Shown in pieces: positions 1 to 46,914 of a stretch of 64,000 nucleotides of DNA (its first letter is position 1; every line of letters starts with the position of its first letter). Source of the stretch: an uncultured bacterium. GTDB lineage: Bacteria > Oederibacteriota > PGYV01 > CAWJRG01. Below the pieces are notes generated by a model. The model did no database searches. It saw only the letters and a list, made by a program, of their open reading frames with translations, and was not told where the DNA came from. The stretch is taken from the NCBI GenBank assembly GCA_963845185.1, contig CAWJRG010000009.1:800001-864000 (forward strand). The letters run 5' to 3'. The position numbers and the translations under genes were made by a program.

Positions 1-403
1 GCACAACAGCGCTGGTCATCAGGAAAACTCCGTTAACATTTGTGTTTATTACCATGCGCCACATGTCTGGGTCAGCTTCCCAAAAAGGCTTTGGTTCTGT
101 CATGAAACTGTCATTGACAAACTTCATTCCCCTTCCCGCATTATTAACAAGAATGTCTATCTTTCCATATTTTGATATCACCGTATCCACGAGCCTTTGC
201 ACGTCATTTACGTCAGTTACATCGGCAAGTATCGCTGTACCACCTATTTTTGCCGCAACCCCGTCTATTTCTTTTTTCTGCTTGGCTGCGGTTACCACAA
301 CATCCGCGCTCTCAGCAGCGAATGCCTCGGCAATGCCCCTGCCAATGCCCCTTCCTCCGCCTGTAATAATTGCAATCTTGTTCTTCAGCTTTCCCTTTTT
401 CAA
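1..403 (-). CDS. SDR family oxidoreductase, 3' end beyond window
   Basis: Manual translation from TTG at 403 (RBS AGGGAGG): MKKGKLKNKIAIITGGGRGIG...IDILVNNAG; TGxxxGIG and NNAG SDR motifs. Confidence 0.9.
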   Translation of the reverse strand, partial: MKKGKLKNKIAIITGGGRGIGRGIAEAFAAESADVVVTAAKQKKEIDGVAAKIGGTAILADVTDVNDVQRLVDTVISKYGKIDILVNNAGRGMKFVNDSFMTEPKPFWEADPDMWRMVINTNVNGVFLMTSAVV

Positions 404-10812: not shown

Positions 10813-11181
10813 TTATGGAAGATTTCCTTCCAATTCCTCGCATTGATAGAGGGTTGTTTGGCTGAACGCAACTTTCCCATCCTCGTATATTTGCTCTAAA
10901 ACATCATCCCCGCAACCATCACATGCGGCTAAAGTAACTCTGGTTCCTGATTTTGCGTTATATGTAGGGGATTTCCACGGAAGGCTTGATGGTTCGACTT
11001 CATATCCTATACCATTCACGTAATATGTAGTCTGATAACCGTCATTATTATAACCTCCGCACCCACTGTTTGATACAGAGAAGTAAACCTTGTGGGTAAA
11101 TAGCGAGCAGGAAGAGCAGGACAGTGTAAGAATACAAATTACTGCTAAAACCATTAATAAGATTTTTTTGTGAGTAGACAT
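10813..11181 (-). CDS. Small Cys-rich putative lipoprotein, host of intron copy 1; spliced form join(13075..13078,10813..11168)=MKKILL..., unspliced form MSTHKKILL... from the intron-borne ATG
   Basis: Signal peptide with LSC; paralog of 13211-13558; first 13 nt of this ORF lie inside intron domain VI. Confidence 0.8.
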   Translation of the reverse strand: MSTHKKILLMVLAVICILTLSCSSCSLFTHKVYFSVSNSGCGGYNNDGYQTTYYVNGIGYEVEPSSLPWKSPTYNAKSGTRVTLAACDGCGDDVLEQIYEDGKVAFSQTTLYQCEELEGNLP

Positions 11182-13074
11182 CTTTTATAACCTCCTTTGG
11201 TTACTTAATGCCCCTCTCAGAACCGAACGTGACCGTTTCGGTCATTCGGCTCCACGGGAATACTTCCTAATACGATGACAGCGAATAGGTTAAATGATAT
11301 ATCCTGGGTTCCGGCAATGGGTTGTATCTTAGAAAGCGGCAAAACTGTTCCCAGTTGTAACTTCTTTTCTGGCTTCGCCTGTTTATCCATTTATAGGCGA
11401 GCGCACGATTTCTCCAGTAGAATTTTGTTATTTGGGGCATATTACCGCTTATCCCGTAATAATTGTAGTGGCCCGTTAACTTTCTTCCTAATGCCTGCCA
11501 CCACTGTTTTAATTCCACAAGATTTCTTACGCTCTTTAGCCAGAAGTTCGTCGCCTTCATCTTCTGTTTGAATTTTGTACTTGCCGTCCTTCGGCCTAAT
11601 TTGAAGCCGCCCTTTCTGGTTTTGTCGCAGTAATGAGTAAACCCGAGGAAATCAAAGGTCGGAATTTTCCCGCCTGTATCTTTGGACTTATACCAGGCGT
11701 GGCGCCCGAATACGATTATTCTCGATTTATCTTTGGCGATTTTGAGGCCAAACTTATCAAGCCTCTGTCTTAACATTTCGCCAAACTCCTTTGCTTCGCT
11801 GTCATATTGGAACAGCACAACAAAGTCATCGGCATAACGTATCAGACTGGCGTATCCTTTGAGCTGTCTCTTGACATGCCTTTCGAACCACAGGTCTAAT
11901 ATGTAGTGTAGGTAGATGTTCGCCAGTAATGGGCTTAGTATTCCGCCCTGCGGCGTCCCTTTATCCGTTTCGATAAACTTACCTTCTTCCATAATCCCTG
12001 CATTTAATATCCTGCCGATTAACCTTATCAGGTTTGTATCGGCAATCCTTTGCGTAAGGCATTTCATTAGCCATTTGTGGTTTATGGTATCGAAAAACTT
12101 CTCAATGTCCATATCCACTACTGCGTTGACTGGCTTTGTCATTACTTCCTTATCCAGAATTTTCAATGCCTGATGACAATTTCTGTCAGGCCTGAACCCG
12201 TAAGATACTTCGCTGAAGTCTACCTCAAAGATTGACTCAAGAATTTTCTTTACCCCCATCTGGATTATCTTATCCTCGACGGCAGGTATTCCCAGCGGCC
12301 TCTTGTCTCCGTTTGTCTTGGGGATGTAGACGCGCCTTGTTGGTTGCGGTATGTATCTCCACGCCTTCATCCTATTGATTAAATCCTTGATATTTGCCTC
12401 TTTGTTGACTTCATATTCCTCTATCCTTACTCCGTCAATGCCCGGGGCTTTGTCCTGTTTTAACTCCCCAAAGCACTCCATTAGAAACTCCTCATTGAGC
12501 AGGTGTATCAGCGATGTAAATCTCAATTTTGGATTTTCCTTTGCCCGCATTGTTATGGTCATAAGTTTTGTTGCCATTCCGTCTCCACCTCTGTGTGTGG
12601 CGGTTGTCTCCCTTATGTCCATACGCATTCCCTCTATCCCCTTTTCTCCATCTACTTTCGTAGACTTCATCGATACTATGGGATAGTCAGACTGCCGGAA
12701 CATCTTTTGCGGCTCCTTATCTTTTAGGATTTGTCGCCGCATACTCTCGTTTTGAGGGTGTCCCGGCTCTCCCGAGTTCATATCTGCTCCTTGACATCTT
12801 GACACGGACTTAGACCCCGTCGGATTCCCACTCTCTCGCCTTTTTATGATTGTGGGACTGCTGCCTGCTCTTTTATGAAAAATGTCGGCCTCCGACACGT
12901 TGGCGATTTCGGGGCTCAATACCTTCACTTGCGTTGTATCCCGATGTCTCCCGCCTTCCAGCTTCATTTAGCTCGTTGCCTCACTATTTGTGGAATTTGG
13001 TATTGGGCTGGCGGCTGACCTTTGCCCAGGCTGGACTTTCACCAGCGCGAACCGATACGCTTTTCTCGGCGCAC
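11169..13074 (-). mobile_element. Group II intron copy 1 (1906 nt)
   Basis: 5' GTGCG at 13074; domain V GAGCCGAATGACCGAAACGGTCACGTTCGGTTC (11220-11252) with AGC triad; domain VI stem with bulged A at 11175; internal RT/maturase ORF. Confidence 0.93.
11267..12577 (-). CDS. ltrA: Group II intron reverse transcriptase/maturase, no endonuclease domain (likely start MATKL; frame is open back to 12967)
   Basis: KAPGIDG, RPLGIP, SYGFRP, GTPQGGILSPLLANIYL, RYADD, FDFLGF, domain X GHYNYYG...RRSQK; RBS GAGGTGGAG before 12577. Confidence 0.93.
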   Translation of the reverse strand: MATKLMTITMRAKENPKLRFTSLIHLLNEEFLMECFGELKQDKAPGIDGVRIEEYEVNKEANIKDLINRMKAWRYIPQPTRRVYIPKTNGDKRPLGIPAVEDKIIQMGVKKILESIFEVDFSEVSYGFRPDRNCHQALKILDKEVMTKPVNAVVDMDIEKFFDTINHKWLMKCLTQRIADTNLIRLIGRILNAGIMEEGKFIETDKGTPQGGILSPLLANIYLHYILDLWFERHVKRQLKGYASLIRYADDFVVLFQYDSEAKEFGEMLRQRLDKFGLKIAKDKSRIIVFGRHAWYKSKDTGGKIPTFDFLGFTHYCDKTRKGGFKLGRRTASTKFKQKMKATNFWLKSVRNLVELKQWWQALGRKLTGHYNYYGISGNMPQITKFYWRNRALAYKWINRRSQKRSYNWEQFCRFLRYNPLPEPRIYHLTYSLSSY

Positions 13075-13210
13075 TCATATTCCGCCTCCTTAATTGAATT
13101 TAAAAACAAAACTATTTTATCATTTTTCATTATCCCATGCAAGCAATTTCAGCCAGTATTTACTTTATCCCTAAGTCCAGTGCGTTTTTATTGTGCCATG
13201 AATTAAAAAT

Positions 13211-13558
13211 TTATATTGTGCCGTCAAGGGTTATACCACAGTTATAAGTATCATTGGCGCTTACCAATACGTTCCCATCCCTGTATATGTACATGTTAGT
13301 ATTATTGTTACAGCCTTCGCAACAAAATATTGAAACTGAAGATCCTGCTTTTGCAGTATATGTGGGAGACGTCCATGGCAGGGATGGATAAACCGTATAA
13401 GACGAACCGTTTACAGTATATTCTATCCAACTACTCGTACTGCAGGAACCTGTGTCAGTTACCTTAAAGTAAACTTTGTGGGCAAATAACGAGCAGGAAG
13501 AGCAGGACATCATAAAAACGCTGAATATAGCTAAAACCATTAATATAATTCTACGCAT
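13211..13558 (-). CDS. Small Cys-rich putative lipoprotein, intron-free paralog of 10813-11181
   Basis: MRRIILMVLA...SCSSCSLFAHKVYF...PWTSPTYTAKAG aligns with MKKILLMVLA...SCSSCSLFTHKVYF...PWKSPTYNAKSG. Confidence 0.8.
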   Translation of the reverse strand: MRRIILMVLAIFSVFMMSCSSCSLFAHKVYFKVTDTGSCSTSSWIEYTVNGSSYTVYPSLPWTSPTYTAKAGSSVSIFCCEGCNNNTNMYIYRDGNVLVSANDTYNCGITLDGTI

Positions 13559-20430: not shown

Positions 20431-23400
20431 TTATTTTAATATAATAATCGTATCTGTCCTGGAGCCTACCTTTACCCCGCTTTTTTCCCCAATTACCATG
20501 TAATAATATGTTCCGGGACTCAGGCCGCCAAGCACGTTGCTGTCGCATGTCAAAACCACTCCGCCTTCCGCCTGTTCCACATTTTGTCCCGTTCCATCAA
20601 ATGTCTCTTCCCTTATAAGCCTGTAAGCCTCTGTATATATTTTCAGTATTATGCTGTTTACATTATTTGGCGCTACATTAACCATGATTTTTAATTGTTC
20701 TATCTCCGGGTTTATGGGATTCGGATACGGCATTAAATGCCCTACCGTCAGCGGCCCTGACAACACCGCTGCCGGCATATTTGTTGCCGTAAGCGTAGGT
20801 GTTCCTGTCACTACGGGTGACTGTGTACTTGTCTGTGTTATGGTCGGCGTGCCTGTAAGCGACGGCGTACCTGTAATTGTCGCTGTAACCGTAGGCGTCG
20901 GCGTGTTTGTCGGCGTGCCTGTAAGCGATGGTGTGCCTGTAATTGTCGCTGTAACCGTAGGCGTCGGCGTGTTTGTCGGCGTGCCTGTAAGCGATGGTGT
21001 GCCTGTAATTGTCGCTGTAACCGTAGGCGTCGGCGTGTTTGTCGGCGTTTGAGTTATTGTGAAAGTCGTGGTATTAGTCGGCGTTGATGTCTGTGAAACA
21101 TATGGCGTAATGGTCGGTGAAGGACATGCCCCGAACTTTTGGATCCTGTAATTGTTTGTATCCGCTACGTACACGTCTCCGCTGCTGTCTGTTGCCAGCC
21201 CGTATGGACTGAAAAACTGCCCATTGTTTCCACCCATGATGCCCCATTCTGTCATAAATGTGCCTGTACTGCTGAATTCCTGTATCCTGTTATTGCCCTC
21301 GTCCGAGACATACACGTTTCCGCTGCTGTCGCATGCCACTCCGGTAGGATAATGAAATTGCCCGGGGTTTGATCCTGAACTGCCCCACTGCGTGATATAT
21401 ACGCCTGAGCCTGTGAATTTCTGTACTGTATCAATGCTTATATCTGAAACATACACGTTACCGCTTCCGTCCACTGCTATGCCTTCAGGCTCGACAAACT
21501 GGCCATTGCCCAGCCCCGGAGTGCCCCATTGCGCTATATATGCGCCTGTGCTGCTGAATTCTTCCACCCTGCTGTTCATAGAATCTGTGACATACACATT
21601 TCCGCTGTTATTATCCACTGCAATACCGTAAGGTGAGCTGAACTGGCCGTTCCCGCTTCCGGCGCTTCCCCACTGTGCGGCATATGCGCCGTTGCTTGTG
21701 AATTCCTGTATCCTGTTATTTTTATAATCCGTGACATATACGTTTCCGTTGCTGCCTACAGCCACCCCGCTGGGTTCACTAAACTGGCCGTTGCCGCTTC
21801 CCGGACCGCCCCACTGCGTTATAAAAGTGCCTGTGCTGCTGAATGCCTGGATGCTGTTATTAAACCAGTCCACGACATACACATTTCCGCTGTTATTGTC
21901 CACTGCCGCTGAAAAAGGAGCGATAAACTGCCCGTTTTTGGCCCCATAACTTCCCCATTTTGTAATATAGCACGGCGCAGGGCCTGATGATACCATAGTA
22001 GCAGTATAGGTTATTGTGGGTGACACTACAGGTGACTGTGTGGCCGACACCGTGATTATAGGTGTTATTGTAACTGTCATTGTATACGGGGCAATAGTCT
22101 GTGTTGGTGAAATAGTCGGCGATACAACCGGCGTAGGGCTTGCGCACACGCCGAACTCCTGTATCCTGTTATTCTGGCTGTCTGCAACAAATATATCTCC
22201 GGCGCTGTCTATTGCCACGCCATTGGCGCCGTGAAACTGCCCGTTGTTGAGCCCAAGGCCTCCCCATTGCGTGATATACACGCCGCTGCTTGTGAATTCC
22301 TGTACCCTGTTGTTATTCCAGTCGCCAATATAAATGTTTCCATTGCTGTCCATTGCTATTCCGGCAGGCCCGTTGAACTGCCCCGGGTTTGTTCCGCTGC
22401 TGCCCCACTGGGTTAAATAAGTGCCTGTGGCTGTGAATTCTTCCACCCTGTTATTCTGGAAGTCTGTAATATATAAAGTTCCGCTGCTGTCTATTACTAT
22501 ATTGGAAGGATACTCAAACTGTCCGTTGCCTGCGCCGTAACTACCCCATCGTCTTATGTATGTGCCTGTACTGCTGAATTCCTGGATTCTGCTGTTATTA
22601 TAATCCGCGACATATACGTTTCCGCTGCTGTCCAGCGCAATTCCTTCAGGATATTCAAACTGCCCGTTGCCGTTTCCTGTGGTACCCCATTGCGTGATAT
22701 ATGCACCTGAACCTGTAAATTCCTGTATTCTGTTATTCTGCATGTCCGAGACATACACGTTTCCGCTGCTGCCTATGGCTATTCCCGTAGGCTCATAAAA
22801 CTGCCCGTTGCCGGTCCCGGAACCGCCCCATTGCGTTATATACATTCCCGTATTGCTGAATTCCCGAATCCTGTTATTCATCTCGTCTGCAATATACACG
22901 TTCCCATTGCTGTCCAACGCTACGCCATTGGGCCAGTCAAACTGGCCGTTGCCTGTTCCTAAACTGCCCCATTTTGTGATAAAGCATGGAGTCGGACCTG
23001 ATACCAGAGTTGCAGTGAAAGTCGGCGATATTGTAGATGTGCAAGTGGTGCTCGGTGTTATTGTAAAAGTCGCGCTTACGGTACGGGTTGGAGTAACAGA
23101 CAGAGTAGCTGTATTTGACAGTGTACACAAACAGGTATTCGTATATGTGCCTGTTGCCGATATTGTGATTGTTAATGTGGGAGTGCTTGTCGGAGTGTTT
23201 GTAAATGTGCTTAAAACAGACGGAGTACCTGTCCCTGTAGGAGTAGTTGTGTACGTACACATGCAGGCATTTGTCAATGTGGCCGTGGGTGATATTATGA
23301 TTGTTTGCGTATTTGTCATTGTCCGTGTCGGGGATGCTGTAAAAGTCGGAGTTGATGTCGCCGAAGGGCAAATTCCGAATTTTTGGATCCTGTCATTCTG

Positions 23401-24291
23401 AGTGTCTGCAACATACACGTTAAAATTGCTGTCTACTATCACTCCGGCAGGATATTCAAACTGTCCGTTAGCGGTTCCTTGATTTCCCCATTGTGTTATA
23501 TATACGCCTGTGCTGTCAAATTCCTGGATCCTGTTATTCTGCTGGTCCGCGACATATACGTTAGAATTATTGTCTACTGCTATTCCATAAGGATACTCAA
23601 ACTGACTGCTGCCGCTTCCCTGAATTCCCCATTGTGCAATATATACGCCCGCACTGCTGAATTTTTGAATCCTGTAATTAGCAGAATCCGAGACATACAC
23701 GTTTCCGTTGCTGTCTACTGCCACTCCATGAGGATTATAAAACTGGCCGTTGGCGGTTCCACTGACATACCCGGGAGTGCCCCATTGTGTTATGTATGCA
23801 CCTGCACTGCTGAATTCCTGGATTCTGTTATTGCCATTGTCCGCGACATACACATCACCGCTGCTGTCTGTTGCTACTCCAATAGGCAAATTAAACTGGC
23901 CGTTGCCGTTTCCATAATTACCCCATTGTGTTAAATATGTCCCTGTATTGCTATATTCATATATTCCGTTATTAATATAATCTGAAACATACACGTTTCC
24001 ACTACCGGCTATTGCTATTCCCAAAGGATAAGAAAGTTGCCCGCTGCCAAATTGGGTTATGTAAGCGCCTGTGTTGCTGAATTCCTGGATTCTGCTATTA
24101 GCTGAGTCTGCGACATACACGTTCCCGCTGTTATCCACTGCTACTCCATAAGGATAATTACTAAACTGCCCGTTACCGGTTCCAAAACTTCCCCAGGCAA
24201 GGATGAAACAAGGCGGCGATGCAGCCGCGCTATAGGAGCTCATTATAAAAACGGATAAAAGAAACAGAAAATATTTCAGTGATTTTTTCAA
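20431..24291 (-). CDS. Secreted protein with three NHL-repeat propellers, Thr/Pro-rich linkers and a C-terminal sorting-like domain
   Basis: Repeats GQF..P.GIAVDSSGNVYVAD..NNRIQEF in three blocks; TPT-rich linkers; C-terminal YPNP...IYT..YRLI...GTYYY. Confidence 0.85.
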   Translation of the reverse strand: MKKSLKYFLFLLSVFIMSSYSAAASPPCFILAWGSFGTGNGQFSNYPYGVAVDNSGNVYVADSANSRIQEFSNTGAYITQFGSGQLSYPLGIAIAGSGNVYVSDYINNGIYEYSNTGTYLTQWGNYGNGNGQFNLPIGVATDSSGDVYVADNGNNRIQEFSSAGAYITQWGTPGYVSGTANGQFYNPHGVAVDSNGNVYVSDSANYRIQKFSSAGVYIAQWGIQGSGSSQFEYPYGIAVDNNSNVYVADQQNNRIQEFDSTGVYITQWGNQGTANGQFEYPAGVIVDSNFNVYVADTQNDRIQKFGICPSATSTPTFTASPTRTMTNTQTIIISPTATLTNACMCTYTTTPTGTGTPSVLSTFTNTPTSTPTLTITISATGTYTNTCLCTLSNTATLSVTPTRTVSATFTITPSTTCTSTISPTFTATLVSGPTPCFITKWGSLGTGNGQFDWPNGVALDSNGNVYIADEMNNRIREFSNTGMYITQWGGSGTGNGQFYEPTGIAIGSSGNVYVSDMQNNRIQEFTGSGAYITQWGTTGNGNGQFEYPEGIALDSSGNVYVADYNNSRIQEFSSTGTYIRRWGSYGAGNGQFEYPSNIVIDSSGTLYITDFQNNRVEEFTATGTYLTQWGSSGTNPGQFNGPAGIAMDSNGNIYIGDWNNNRVQEFTSSGVYITQWGGLGLNNGQFHGANGVAIDSAGDIFVADSQNNRIQEFGVCASPTPVVSPTISPTQTIAPYTMTVTITPIITVSATQSPVVSPTITYTATMVSSGPAPCYITKWGSYGAKNGQFIAPFSAAVDNNSGNVYVVDWFNNSIQAFSSTGTFITQWGGPGSGNGQFSEPSGVAVGSNGNVYVTDYKNNRIQEFTSNGAYAAQWGSAGSGNGQFSSPYGIAVDNNSGNVYVTDSMNSRVEEFSSTGAYIAQWGTPGLGNGQFVEPEGIAVDGSGNVYVSDISIDTVQKFTGSGVYITQWGSSGSNPGQFHYPTGVACDSSGNVYVSDEGNNRIQEFSSTGTFMTEWGIMGGNNGQFFSPYGLATDSSGDVYVADTNNYRIQKFGACPSPTITPYVSQTSTPTNTTTFTITQTPTNTPTPTVTATITGTPSLTGTPTNTPTPTVTATITGTPSLTGTPTNTPTPTVTATITGTPSLTGTPTITQTSTQSPVVTGTPTLTATNMPAAVLSGPLTVGHLMPYPNPINPEIEQLKIMVNVAPNNVNSIILKIYTEAYRLIREETFDGTGQNVEQAEGGVVLTCDSNVLGGLSPGTYYYMVIGEKSGVKVGSRTDTIIILK
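20842..21047. repeat. 66-bp tandem repeat (about 3 copies) encoding TNTPTPTVTATITGTPSLTGTP
   Basis: Direct repeats visible in both DNA and protein. Confidence 0.85.
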
Positions 24292-44578: not shown

Positions 44579-45022
44579 TTATAATCCATTATCCTGGCAG
44601 GCCACCCAGTGTGAATCTATGGCCGAGGTATTGCCGCTTACAGTTATTGTATGCGTGGATCCCAGTGTTACTGAAAAAGCGCACCAGTTGACATAATAGC
44701 CGTTTGTACCGTTTACATTTACATTGTATGAATCTGTAGCCGGTATGCCGATACTTACATCCGCTGAAGTGCCTGCTGTTATTGAACAGCTCTGCGAATA
44801 ACTGCTTGAATCCGAATTGCGCACTAATTGCACTGAAACAATAGTTTTTGTTGCGCCCGAATCGCTGTTGGTGATGTTGAACATAACATAATTCGGAGTC
44901 TGCGTTGGTATAGGCCCCGGCGATGTGGATGATTTTTTTGTACAACCGAGGTTAAGCATGTTTAAAACAATAAAACAACATCCAACAAAAAAGACTGCTG
45001 AAAATTTTTTGTGAGTAGACAT
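44579..45022 (-). CDS. Putative lipoprotein, host of intron copy 2; spliced form join(46915..46918,44579..45009)=MKKFSAV..., unspliced MSTHKKFSAV...
   Basis: Lipobox NLGC; first 13 nt lie inside intron domain VI. Confidence 0.8.
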   Translation of the reverse strand: MSTHKKFSAVFFVGCCFIVLNMLNLGCTKKSSTSPGPIPTQTPNYVMFNITNSDSGATKTIVSVQLVRNSDSSSYSQSCSITAGTSADVSIGIPATDSYNVNVNGTNGYYVNWCAFSVTLGSTHTITVSGNTSAIDSHWVACQDNGL

Positions 45023-46914
45023 CTTTTATAACCTCCTTTGGTTACTTAATGCCCCTCTCAGAACCGAACGTGACCGTTTCGGTCATTCGGCTCCACGGGA
45101 ATACTTCCTAATACGATGACAGCGAATAGGTTAAATGATATATCCTGGGTTCCGGCAATGGGTTGTATCTTAGAAAGCGGCAAAACTGTTCCCAGTTGTA
45201 ACTTCTTTTCTGGCTTCGCCTGTTTATCCATTTATAGGCGAGCGCACGATTTCTCCAGTAGAATTTTGTTATTTGGGGCATATTACCGCTTATCCCGTAA
45301 TAATTGTAGTGGCCCGTTAACTTTCTTCCTAATGCCTGCCACCACTGTTTTAATTCCACAAGATTTCTTACGCTCTTTAGCCAGAAGTTCGTCGCCTTCA
45401 TCTTCTGTTTGAATTTTGTACTTGCCGTCCTTCGGCCTAATTTGAAGCCGCCCTTTCTGGTTTTGTCGCAGTAATGAGTAAACCCGAGGAAATCAAAGGT
45501 CGGAATTTTCCCGCCTGTATCTTTGGACTTATACCAGGCGTGGCGCCCGAATACGATTATTCTCGATTTATCTTTGGCGATTTTGAGGCCAAACTTATCA
45601 AGCCTCTGTCTTAACATTTCGCCAAACTCCTTTGCTTCGCTGTCATATTGGAACAGCACAACAAAGTCATCGGCATAACGTATCAGACTGGCGTATCCTT
45701 TGAGCTGTCTCTTGACATGCCTTTCGAACCACAGGTCTAATATGTAGTGTAGGTAGATGTTCGCCAGTAATGGGCTTAGTATTCCGCCCTGCGGCGTCCC
45801 TTTATCCGTTTCGATAAACTTACCTTCTTCCATAATCCCTGCATTTAATATCCTGCCGATTAACCTTATCAGGTTTGTATCGGCAATCCTTTGCGTAAGG
45901 CATTTCATTAGCCATTTGTGGTTTATGGTATCGAAAAACTTCTCAATGTCCATATCCACTACTGCGTTGACTGGCTTTGTCATTACTTCCTTATCCAGAA
46001 TTTTCAATGCCTGATGACAATTTCTGTCAGGCCTGAACCCGTAAGATACTTCGCTGAAGTCTACCTCAAAGATTGACTCAAGAATTTTCTTTACCCCCAT
46101 CTGGATTATCTTATCCTCGACGGCAGGTATTCCCAGCGGCCTCTTGTCTCCGTTTGTCTTGGGGATGTAGACGCGCCTTGTTGGTTGCGGTATGTATCTC
46201 CACGCCTTCATCCTATTGATTAAATCCTTGATATTTGCCTCTTTGTTGACTTCATATTCCTCTATCCTTACTCCGTCAATGCCCGGGGCTTTGTCCTGTT
46301 TTAACTCCCCAAAGCACTCCATTAGAAACTCCTCATTGAGCAGGTGTATCAGCGATGTAAATCTCAATTTTGGATTTTCCTTTGCCCGCATTGTTATGGT
46401 CATAAGTTTTGTTGCCATTCCGTCTCCACCTCTGTGTGTGGCGGTTGTCTCCCTTATGTCCATACGCATTCCCTCTATCCCCTTTCTCCATCTACTTTCG
46501 TAGACTTCATCGATACTATGGGATAGTCAGACTGCCGGAACATCTTTTGCGGCTCCTTATCTTTTAGGATTTGTCGCCGCATACTCTCGTTTTGAGGGTG
46601 TCCCGGCTCTCCCGAGTTCATATCTGCTCCTTGACATCTTGACACGGACTTAGACCCCGTCGGATTCCCACTCTCTCGCCTTTTTATGATTGTGGGACTG
46701 CTGCCTGCTCTTTTATGAAAAATGTCGGCCTCCGACACGTTGGCGATTTCGGGGCTCAATACCTTCACTTGCGTTGTATCCCGATGTCTCCCGCCTTCCA
46801 GCTTCATTTAGCTCGTTGCCTCACTATTTGTGGAATTTGGTATTGGGCTGGCGGCTGACCTTTGCCCAGGCTGGACTTTCACCAGCGCGAACCGATACGC
46901 TTTTCTCGGCGCAC
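45010..46914 (-). mobile_element. Group II intron copy 2 (1905 nt)
   Basis: Matches copy 1 wherever compared, except one T fewer near 46483 (domain III region); GTGCG at 46914; domain V at 45061-45093. Confidence 0.93.
45108..46418 (-). CDS. ltrA: Group II intron reverse transcriptase/maturase (copy 2)
   Basis: Protein identical to copy 1 from MATKL to the stop. Confidence 0.93.
   Translation of the reverse strand: MATKLMTITMRAKENPKLRFTSLIHLLNEEFLMECFGELKQDKAPGIDGVRIEEYEVNKEANIKDLINRMKAWRYIPQPTRRVYIPKTNGDKRPLGIPAVEDKIIQMGVKKILESIFEVDFSEVSYGFRPDRNCHQALKILDKEVMTKPVNAVVDMDIEKFFDTINHKWLMKCLTQRIADTNLIRLIGRILNAGIMEEGKFIETDKGTPQGGILSPLLANIYLHYILDLWFERHVKRQLKGYASLIRYADDFVVLFQYDSEAKEFGEMLRQRLDKFGLKIAKDKSRIIVFGRHAWYKSKDTGGKIPTFDFLGFTHYCDKTRKGGFKLGRRTASTKFKQKMKATNFWLKSVRNLVELKQWWQALGRKLTGHYNYYGISGNMPQITKFYWRNRALAYKWINRRSQKRSYNWEQFCRFLRYNPLPEPRIYHLTYSLSSY

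Follow-up and report, generated by a model that had tools for sequence, protein, structure and literature searches.

Sequence evidence for a probable inverted U-A γ-γ′ pair at the 3′ end of a start-codon group II intron

The minus strand of the window, by which is meant the whole 64,000-nucleotide stretch of DNA analyzed here, contains a group II intron of 1,906 nt that runs from position 13074 to 11169, begins with GUGCG and ends with CUCACA (copy 1). Its parts, together with those of a second copy in the window, are listed in Table 1. The D1-D4 and DV-DVI models of Rfam match both copies (RF02005, 100.4 bits; RF00029, 49.1 bits), and domains I through VI, including a catalytic domain V and a bulged adenosine in domain VI, can be delineated from these matches and from the folds. 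The GUGCG at position 13074 agrees with the 5′ GUGYG consensus. The 3′ end departs from the expected AY and purine γ in that the intron terminates with CA and its γ residue is a U. The open reading frame of copy 2 matches TIGR04416 at 366 bits (cutoff 300) and contains TATGCCGATGAC, which carries the YADD motif of a reverse transcriptase/maturase. Pfam assigns RVT_1 and a weak RdRP_1 match to the protein; the same search of its 453 residues for an endonuclease domain gave no HNH match.

Table 1. Features of the intron copies and their surroundings (window coordinates).
Feature	Position	Strand	Basis
Group II intron, copy 1	11169..13074	-	Rfam RF02005 and RF00029 above gathering score; ends by frame test and alignment
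Intron copy 2, 1,905 nt, one base less in domain III	45010..46914	-	sequence comparison, frame test
Copy 2 details	γ U46529; bulged A45016; terminal A45010; host exon 45009-44579	-	sequence
5′ exon: host GGAGG (13089-13085), ATG (13078-13076), A (13075)	13075..13089	-	sequence
α GCC (13015-13013) and α′ GGC (12840-12838, terminal loop)	12838..13015	-	compensatory ACC/GGT in L029, L137
Candidate EBS2, UCGCC	12902..12906	-	complementary to GGCGG at -12 to -8 (13086-13082), overlapping the host Shine-Dalgarno
δ U12879 and EBS1 UCAUAA (12878-12873)	12873..12879	-	covariation with 5′ exons of relatives
EBS3, U, predicted to pair with first 3′-exon base A11168	12812	-	covariation in relatives
γ, U in J2/3 AGUC-U-GA (12693-12687)	12689	-	alignment column GTC-N-GA; domain II 12767-12694, domain III 12686-12634
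Reverse transcriptase/maturase, 453 aa, YADD	11267..12628	-	copy 1 positions transferred by offset from the copy 2 ORF
Domain V, AGC triad, GAAAC pentaloop	11220..11252	-	Rfam, fold
DV-DVI linker, UGA	11219-11217	-	sequence
Domain VI with Shine-Dalgarno-like GGAGG (11195-11191) and AUG (11181-11179)	11172..11216	-	fold, sequence
Bulged adenosine, predicted branch point, position -7	11175	-	DV-DVI fold, RF00029 alignment
Terminal A (γ′); penultimate C 11170; 3-nt tail ACA 11171-11169	11169	-	frame test, register of relatives
Host gene 3′ exon, 119 aa after splicing, MKKILLMVLAV...	10813..11168	-	in-silico ligation
Intron-free tandem paralog of host gene, MRRIILMVLA...	13211..13558	-	45% identity over 118 aa, E 1e-33

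The host protein predicted after splicing has a start resembling a signal peptide and shows no match in Pfam or NCBIfam. When unspliced, the native ATG opens a frame of 36 codons that reads into domain I and then meets a stop (13078-12968). The AUG of domain VI shares the reading frame of the host gene (MSTH-KKILL...), and together with its GGAGG would provide a spare start for that gene. EBS1 is predicted to pair with an IBS1 of ATATGA (13080-13075), with its first U opposite the A that follows the ATG. The EBS3/IBS3 combination in relatives, which are designated here by L numbers, is G with C in L015 and L018 and A with T in L020 and L032; exceptions are mismatches in L035/L111 and L076 and a wobble in L023. 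For the candidate EBS2, the pairing score across 41 related rows is 9.2 versus 8.1 ± 0.28 for shuffled partners (0/2000). Elsewhere in the window (20431-24291) lies a protein of 1,286 residues in which many NHL-type repeats are matched (656 bits to a ScyF-like model).

The whole genome contains seven copies of the intron, namely six full ones that are at least 99.8% identical and a diverged one devoid of the open reading frame. All are found in different genes, each behind GGAGG...ATGA, and all have a γ U and the tail CUCACA. The near identity of the six copies in unrelated genes suggests recent mobility. The ORF-deleted copy (G000 C1:269109-269894) is 786 nt long and ∼90% identical in its 5′ part, and GUG replaces its domain VI AUG. 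Another copy (G000 C9:699945-701852) has an extra A late in the reverse transcriptase frame (alignment column 1751), likely causing a frameshift near the C-terminus. Searches of viral contigs gave 0 matches, and those of related genomes gave distant matches in 5 of 60 and a near-identical one in none; in three DNA sequencing runs, searched as contigs, neither a ligated joint nor an empty allele was found. Distinct 5′ exons end with ATG, ATGA or ATGG in 39 of 46 cases, and 7/7 copies of this genome lie at start codons. Whereas GGAGG is located upstream of only 54 of the 1,029 genomic (A/T)TATGAAA sites, it precedes 7/7 of those that are occupied, and thus targeting or selection goes beyond EBS1.

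The minus strand reads GAUGUCU-A(11175)-CUC-ACA(11169)|AAAAAAUC at the intron's 3′ end, and the GUGCG at 13074 directly follows ATG-A. The initial annotation had placed the end at ACA on the grounds that the host frame is thereby restored, and this restoration was confirmed: the two copies in the window yield host frames of 119 and 144 codons with ACA versus 41 and 20 with AC. By ligation in silico, ACA gives the longest host frame in 7/7 genome copies and, among the matches listed, in 24/24 distinct insertion sites, a site being counted if its 3′ flank extended for 240 nt or more (of 27 distinct flanks, 3 fell short of this, and four loci stop at a contig end). A frame of at least 60 codons is reached in 24 of these sites with ACA and in one with AC. 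An end at ACAA, for which 0/24 sites reach 60 codons, was ruled out. Two hosts are recognizable in the ACA frame, a Response_reg protein and a CobN/Mg-chelatase. Among the matches listed, the two bases after CUCAC are AA in 27/27 distinct flanks, the first of them having been left free by both search patterns, and the tail runs into two to seven As. If an AC end is assumed, exon position +2 is A in 17/17 cases versus 74/102 in relatives (Fisher p 0.011); if ACA is assumed, it is A in 14/17 (p 0.55 versus relatives).

The metagenome pattern, in which the tail was left free, retrieved at least 120 loci, and a second pattern ending at CAC gave eight further matches in 4 of 401 genomes. The tails in at least 142 metagenome and genome matches, which include duplicates and five of the intron's own copies, are GAC in 110, ACA in 19 and AAC in eight, with five singletons. 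Relatives thus tagged end with CUC-GAC or CUC-AAC and have the bulged adenosine at the same distance (-7), so that GAC is here exchanged for ACA; since the search pattern already contained the bulged A and the lower helix, their constancy is not independent evidence. The assignment of A11175 to position -7 holds with an end at 11169. The accompanying description of the intron as reaching one base beyond the usual AY does not hold as a statement of length, since the GAC and AAC tails of relatives are equally long, but may hold as one of history. In L092 (match 57-111), whose 5′ half lies beyond the contig, the tail reads CUC-AAG; if this is the true end, its terminal G would predict a γ C.

Splicing after AC would leave an extra A in the ligated exons, out of frame, and translation from the domain VI start would be the sole source of host protein. 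The canonical AC is indeed present, and the domain VI start would keep the host genes expressed. We nevertheless regard such splicing as highly improbable, given that the empty targets would then be out-of-frame starts with good Shine-Dalgarno sequences in 24/24 cases, and that the empty paralog has the in-frame register, the same N-terminal register as the ACA-spliced host gene. Intron insertion is the reverse of splicing, and the inserted unit therefore has a single A at one of its ends, regardless of whether the host needs splicing. According to the papers cited here and below by PMC number, the branch point lies 6 or 7 nt from the 3′ splice site in most subclasses (PMC4748821), and in IIB introns domain VI is followed by the 3′ site after 3 or 4 nt (PMC1865049). 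An AC end would leave a spacer of 5 nt behind the bulged A and a tail of 2 nt behind domain VI, outside both norms.

The same spacer and tail, 5 and 2 nt, and the same departure from these norms (PMC4748821, PMC1865049) result if each boundary is shifted by one base, such that the intron is A-GUGCG...CUCAC and the 5′ exon ends with ATG. The ligated exons would be identical, all U-A sites for which both flanks are available have the A at either junction, and neither DNA nor ligated exons can discriminate between the two registers; the end would, moreover, be a canonical AC. This arrangement would place the γ U against a C. It is also at odds with EBS1, which begins with UCAU both here and in relatives having an unambiguous GAC end, and whose first base varies with the final base of the exon. 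EBS1 tracks the last bases of the exon as CCAU/AUGG in L075 and CAUA/UAUG in L034, and likewise in L015, L021, L032, L056 and L057; the pairing is imperfect in L006 and L016, and a G is read by wobble in L023, L027, L029 and L100. Every 5′ exon seen in the U-A clade ends in A, a member behind a non-A exon end being found in 0/5 new 5′ exons (L202, L204, L220-L222), and it is the relatives alone that argue against the slid boundary. By inference from the covariation of EBS1, the boundary A would belong to the intron's 3′ end, and we consider the slid register very unlikely.

With the end at A11169, attention turns to its predicted partner. The γ residue had been annotated as U12689 in copy 1 and U46529 in copy 2, and it does lie between domains II and III, in the minus-strand context AGUC-U(12689)-GA-CUAUCCC. 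It also remains at 12689 upon alignment, for the GTC-N-GA column is free of gaps in the covering rows (62 aligned). The minimum-energy fold pulls U12689 into the base of domain II; the centroid fold does not. Among the 53 relatives with both ends (nine of the 62 aligned rows are without a 3′ end and were left out), the combinations of γ and tail are U-ACA in six, U-AAA in one, G-GAC in 41, G-AAC in three and C-GAC in two. The last of these is a C.C mismatch in the ORF-less relics L097 and L138, which share the same host gene. The covariation of γ with the last base that the initial annotation had called for is thus seen in one sense, γ matching the last base in 51/53 relatives, and not in another, the U-A group being a single clade. 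A random change of γ would restore pairing one time in three. The γ change is persuasive because an otherwise invariant column took on the very base that restores pairing, yet it does not amount to statistical covariation.

On the basis of the γ column and the match of γ with the last base, the core proposal of a U-A γ-γ′ pair is supported. The intron probably splices after CUCACA (A11169), with U12689 predicted to pair with the terminal A as an inverted γ-γ′ pair. The inversion is well supported by sequence; the splice site and the pair are predictions at the level of RNA. It is unlikely, in our estimation, that the end is at A11169 but the γ U is tolerated drift, with spacing and EBS3 setting the 3′ site and the U-A pair adding little. 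The single origin of the U-A state, the existence of C.C relics, a possible relaxation of selection on splicing by the domain VI start, and the splicing of a B.c.I4 mutant without canonical γ and EBS3 pairs (PMC1865049) would all be compatible with drift. Weighing against it, γ is G in 44/44 other C-ending rows, the ORF-less L097 and L138 aside; the U is retained in all eight covering members of the clade, whose proteins are ∼80% identical; and disruption of γ-γ′ strongly reduces the second step in Gdi-1 (PMC13717195) and RmInt1 (PMC4238363). Against the pair itself, every γ substitution in RmInt1 lowered the first step, even with pairing kept (PMC4238363).

The terminal A had further been credited with supplying the first base of the Lys codon that keeps the intron AUG in frame. 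Codon 2 is indeed left unchanged, the domain VI start reading MSTH-KK instead of MSTR-QK. The claim about the frame does not stand: the domain VI AUG opens a frame of at least 60 codons in 73 of 82 sites of GAC-ending relatives, and the terminal A is thus not needed for it.

All rows with a γ U form one clade in both a protein tree (SH-aLRT 100) and a DNA tree (100/100), and the intron described here is the first branch within it. The DNA tree was built from 39 chosen rows of the 62, from domain III to domain V, with the γ and domain VI columns excluded; the protein tree is a quick tree in which L028 and L029 are oddly placed, probably from the concatenation of matched pieces. A single U-A clade points to one compensatory event rather than repeated covariation. 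Within the clade ACA is ancestral, and AAA occurs in one copy, the other copy of the same genome having ACA. A stepwise route from GAC through AAC and AAA to ACA is unsupported, as the AAC lineages lie outside the U-A clade and the AAA is a single copy beside an ACA. We speculate that the state arose, somewhat probably, by the loss of a tail base and capture of the first A of the exon, followed by the change of γ from G to U; capture is favored because it entails one tail change as compared to two or three by substitution. Stepwise substitution as the origin has a somewhat less than even chance. Also speculatively, the domain VI start may have let a mismatched intermediate persist, the host being readable without splicing. 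The sole support for a tolerated intermediate comes from the C.C relics and from host-gene tails that survived the decay of domain V (L108, L141). Taken together, the scenario in which a start-codon lineage of the class E type moved its 3′ site by capture of an exon base and rewrote γ, with the domain VI start bridging the mismatch, is tentative and rather doubtful as a whole. If true, start-codon introns would be where the AY rule is most readily escaped in nature, and would serve as a bacterial model for the movement of intron 3′ ends from Y to purine.

Several features of the relatives deserve mention. In the decayed tails L108 (match 163-214, minus strand) and L141 (match 903-949), domain V is eroded and the locus shows no reverse transcriptase match; the domain VI AUG still opens a downstream frame, as read by eye, and these may be domesticated start signals. 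In L213 and L216 (G137), two tails ending in ACA, domain VI is divergent and the linker reads UGC, as it also does in L081; the 5′ half of the two was not found in the G137 sequences, and tails of this type possibly represent a deeper branch or a second origin. The DV-DVI linker is UGA in 8/9 ACA, 1/1 AAA, 6/7 AAC and 0/62 GAC variants, and its third base follows tail position -3. The linker change looks convergent, the AAC and ACA lineages being separate (U.G versus A.A at the domain VI base). In L005-L007, L013, L015, L021, L032 and L057, domain VI exceeds 100 nt and has an extra hairpin; several relatives with a long domain VI target non-start sites, with EBS1 changed to match. L190 (pKAP298, Caedibacter), at 49% identity, has a domain VI AUG at the same place and a GAC end, and on this basis the domain VI start design may be old.

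A mechanism can be proposed from these features. EBS1, probably assisted by a short EBS2, would set the 5′ cut at ATGA|G. By its geometry, domain VI would direct the 3′ cut to a point three bases beyond the domain's base and six after the bulged A. The γ U-A and EBS3 U-A pairs would then clamp the junction, as the G-C pair does in relatives, and the excised intron would reverse-splice into new ATGA|A start sites. Since γ′ and IBS3 are both A within a run of As, pairing cannot pick the cut, and the spacing from domain VI must do so. More +1 slippage than in the G-C relatives is predicted.

Textbooks treat an AY end and a purine γ as constants of group II introns, and the profiles employed for boundary prediction incorporate both. 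Boundaries based on such profiles would cut members of the U-A clade one base short, and their host genes would be read as frameshifted. The penultimate base normally partners G1, and a penultimate C loses that partner. The intron thus offers a natural, apparently mobile, inverted pair along with a non-consensus penultimate base, and with close G-C relatives as ready controls it is a clean system for weighing spacing against base identity in 3′ splice-site choice. It would be a rare case in nature of a conserved pair for end recognition being inverted, and the intron has spread nonetheless. The surprise is limited in that the swapped pair already works in mutagenesis and the sampled lineage shows one origin. 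Neither a natural U-A γ pair nor a description of this intron lineage was found in the literature searched, the scope of which did not extend to key older papers and supplements.

In the canonical γ-γ′ interaction, a purine in J2/3 pairs with a terminal pyrimidine, the 3′ consensus being AY (PMC4238363, PMC4424553, PMC4028801). The present intron keeps the J2/3 position, the -7 register and Watson-Crick complementarity; it differs in having a pyrimidine γ and a purine end, both bases of its CA being off consensus. The closest parallel is the U134A-A722U mutant of the circularly permuted intron Gdi-1, in which a γ U likewise faces a terminal A and the activity is indistinguishable from that of the wild type (PMC13717195). 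By analogy with this mutant the swap is chemically plausible. The mutant was, however, laboratory-made in another intron type and retains a penultimate A, whereas the pair described here is natural, fixed in a clade and accompanied by a penultimate C. RmInt1 of Sinorhizobium meliloti, a class D intron, ends with CC and has an ordinary G-C γ pair (PMC4238363). As in our intron, its penultimate base is naturally a C, a homopolymer spans the 3′ splice site and an endonuclease domain is lacking, and its run of Cs has been tied to lower splice fidelity (PMC4238363); the two introns differ in class and target.

With class E introns (IIE; S.me.I4, Cl.be.I2) the present intron has in common a five-base domain V loop, an α′ in a terminal loop and the lack of an endonuclease (PMC3753933). 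The first two are marks of classes E and F: the loop reads GACC-GAAAC-GGUC, with GAAAU or GAAAA in relatives, and the α′ is GGC, with compensation in L029 and L137. The third is a class E trait. In vitro, splicing of class E introns proceeded by hydrolysis (PMC3753933). The encoded protein is 47% identical to that of a frameshifted intron on pRmeGR4b, which we take to be the class E intron S.me.I4 (PMC5894124), and groups with it in the quick tree (SH-aLRT 96), where it is the sole named reference and class F has none. L192, a near-identical intact relative of the pRmeGR4b intron, has a GAC end and a γ G. Unlike the class E introns, the intron described here has a start-codon target, a start signal in domain VI and a CA end. 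Insertion at the translation signals of host genes is also a habit of the start/stop-codon clade of IIB1/CL1 introns (Avi.groEL, EcKTE56.groEL; PMC12584367). Our intron is without their 5′-subterminal Ia insertion of 300-700 nt and their C-terminal endonuclease, and it encodes a protein of another lineage (PMC12584367); the shared start-codon habit is convergent.
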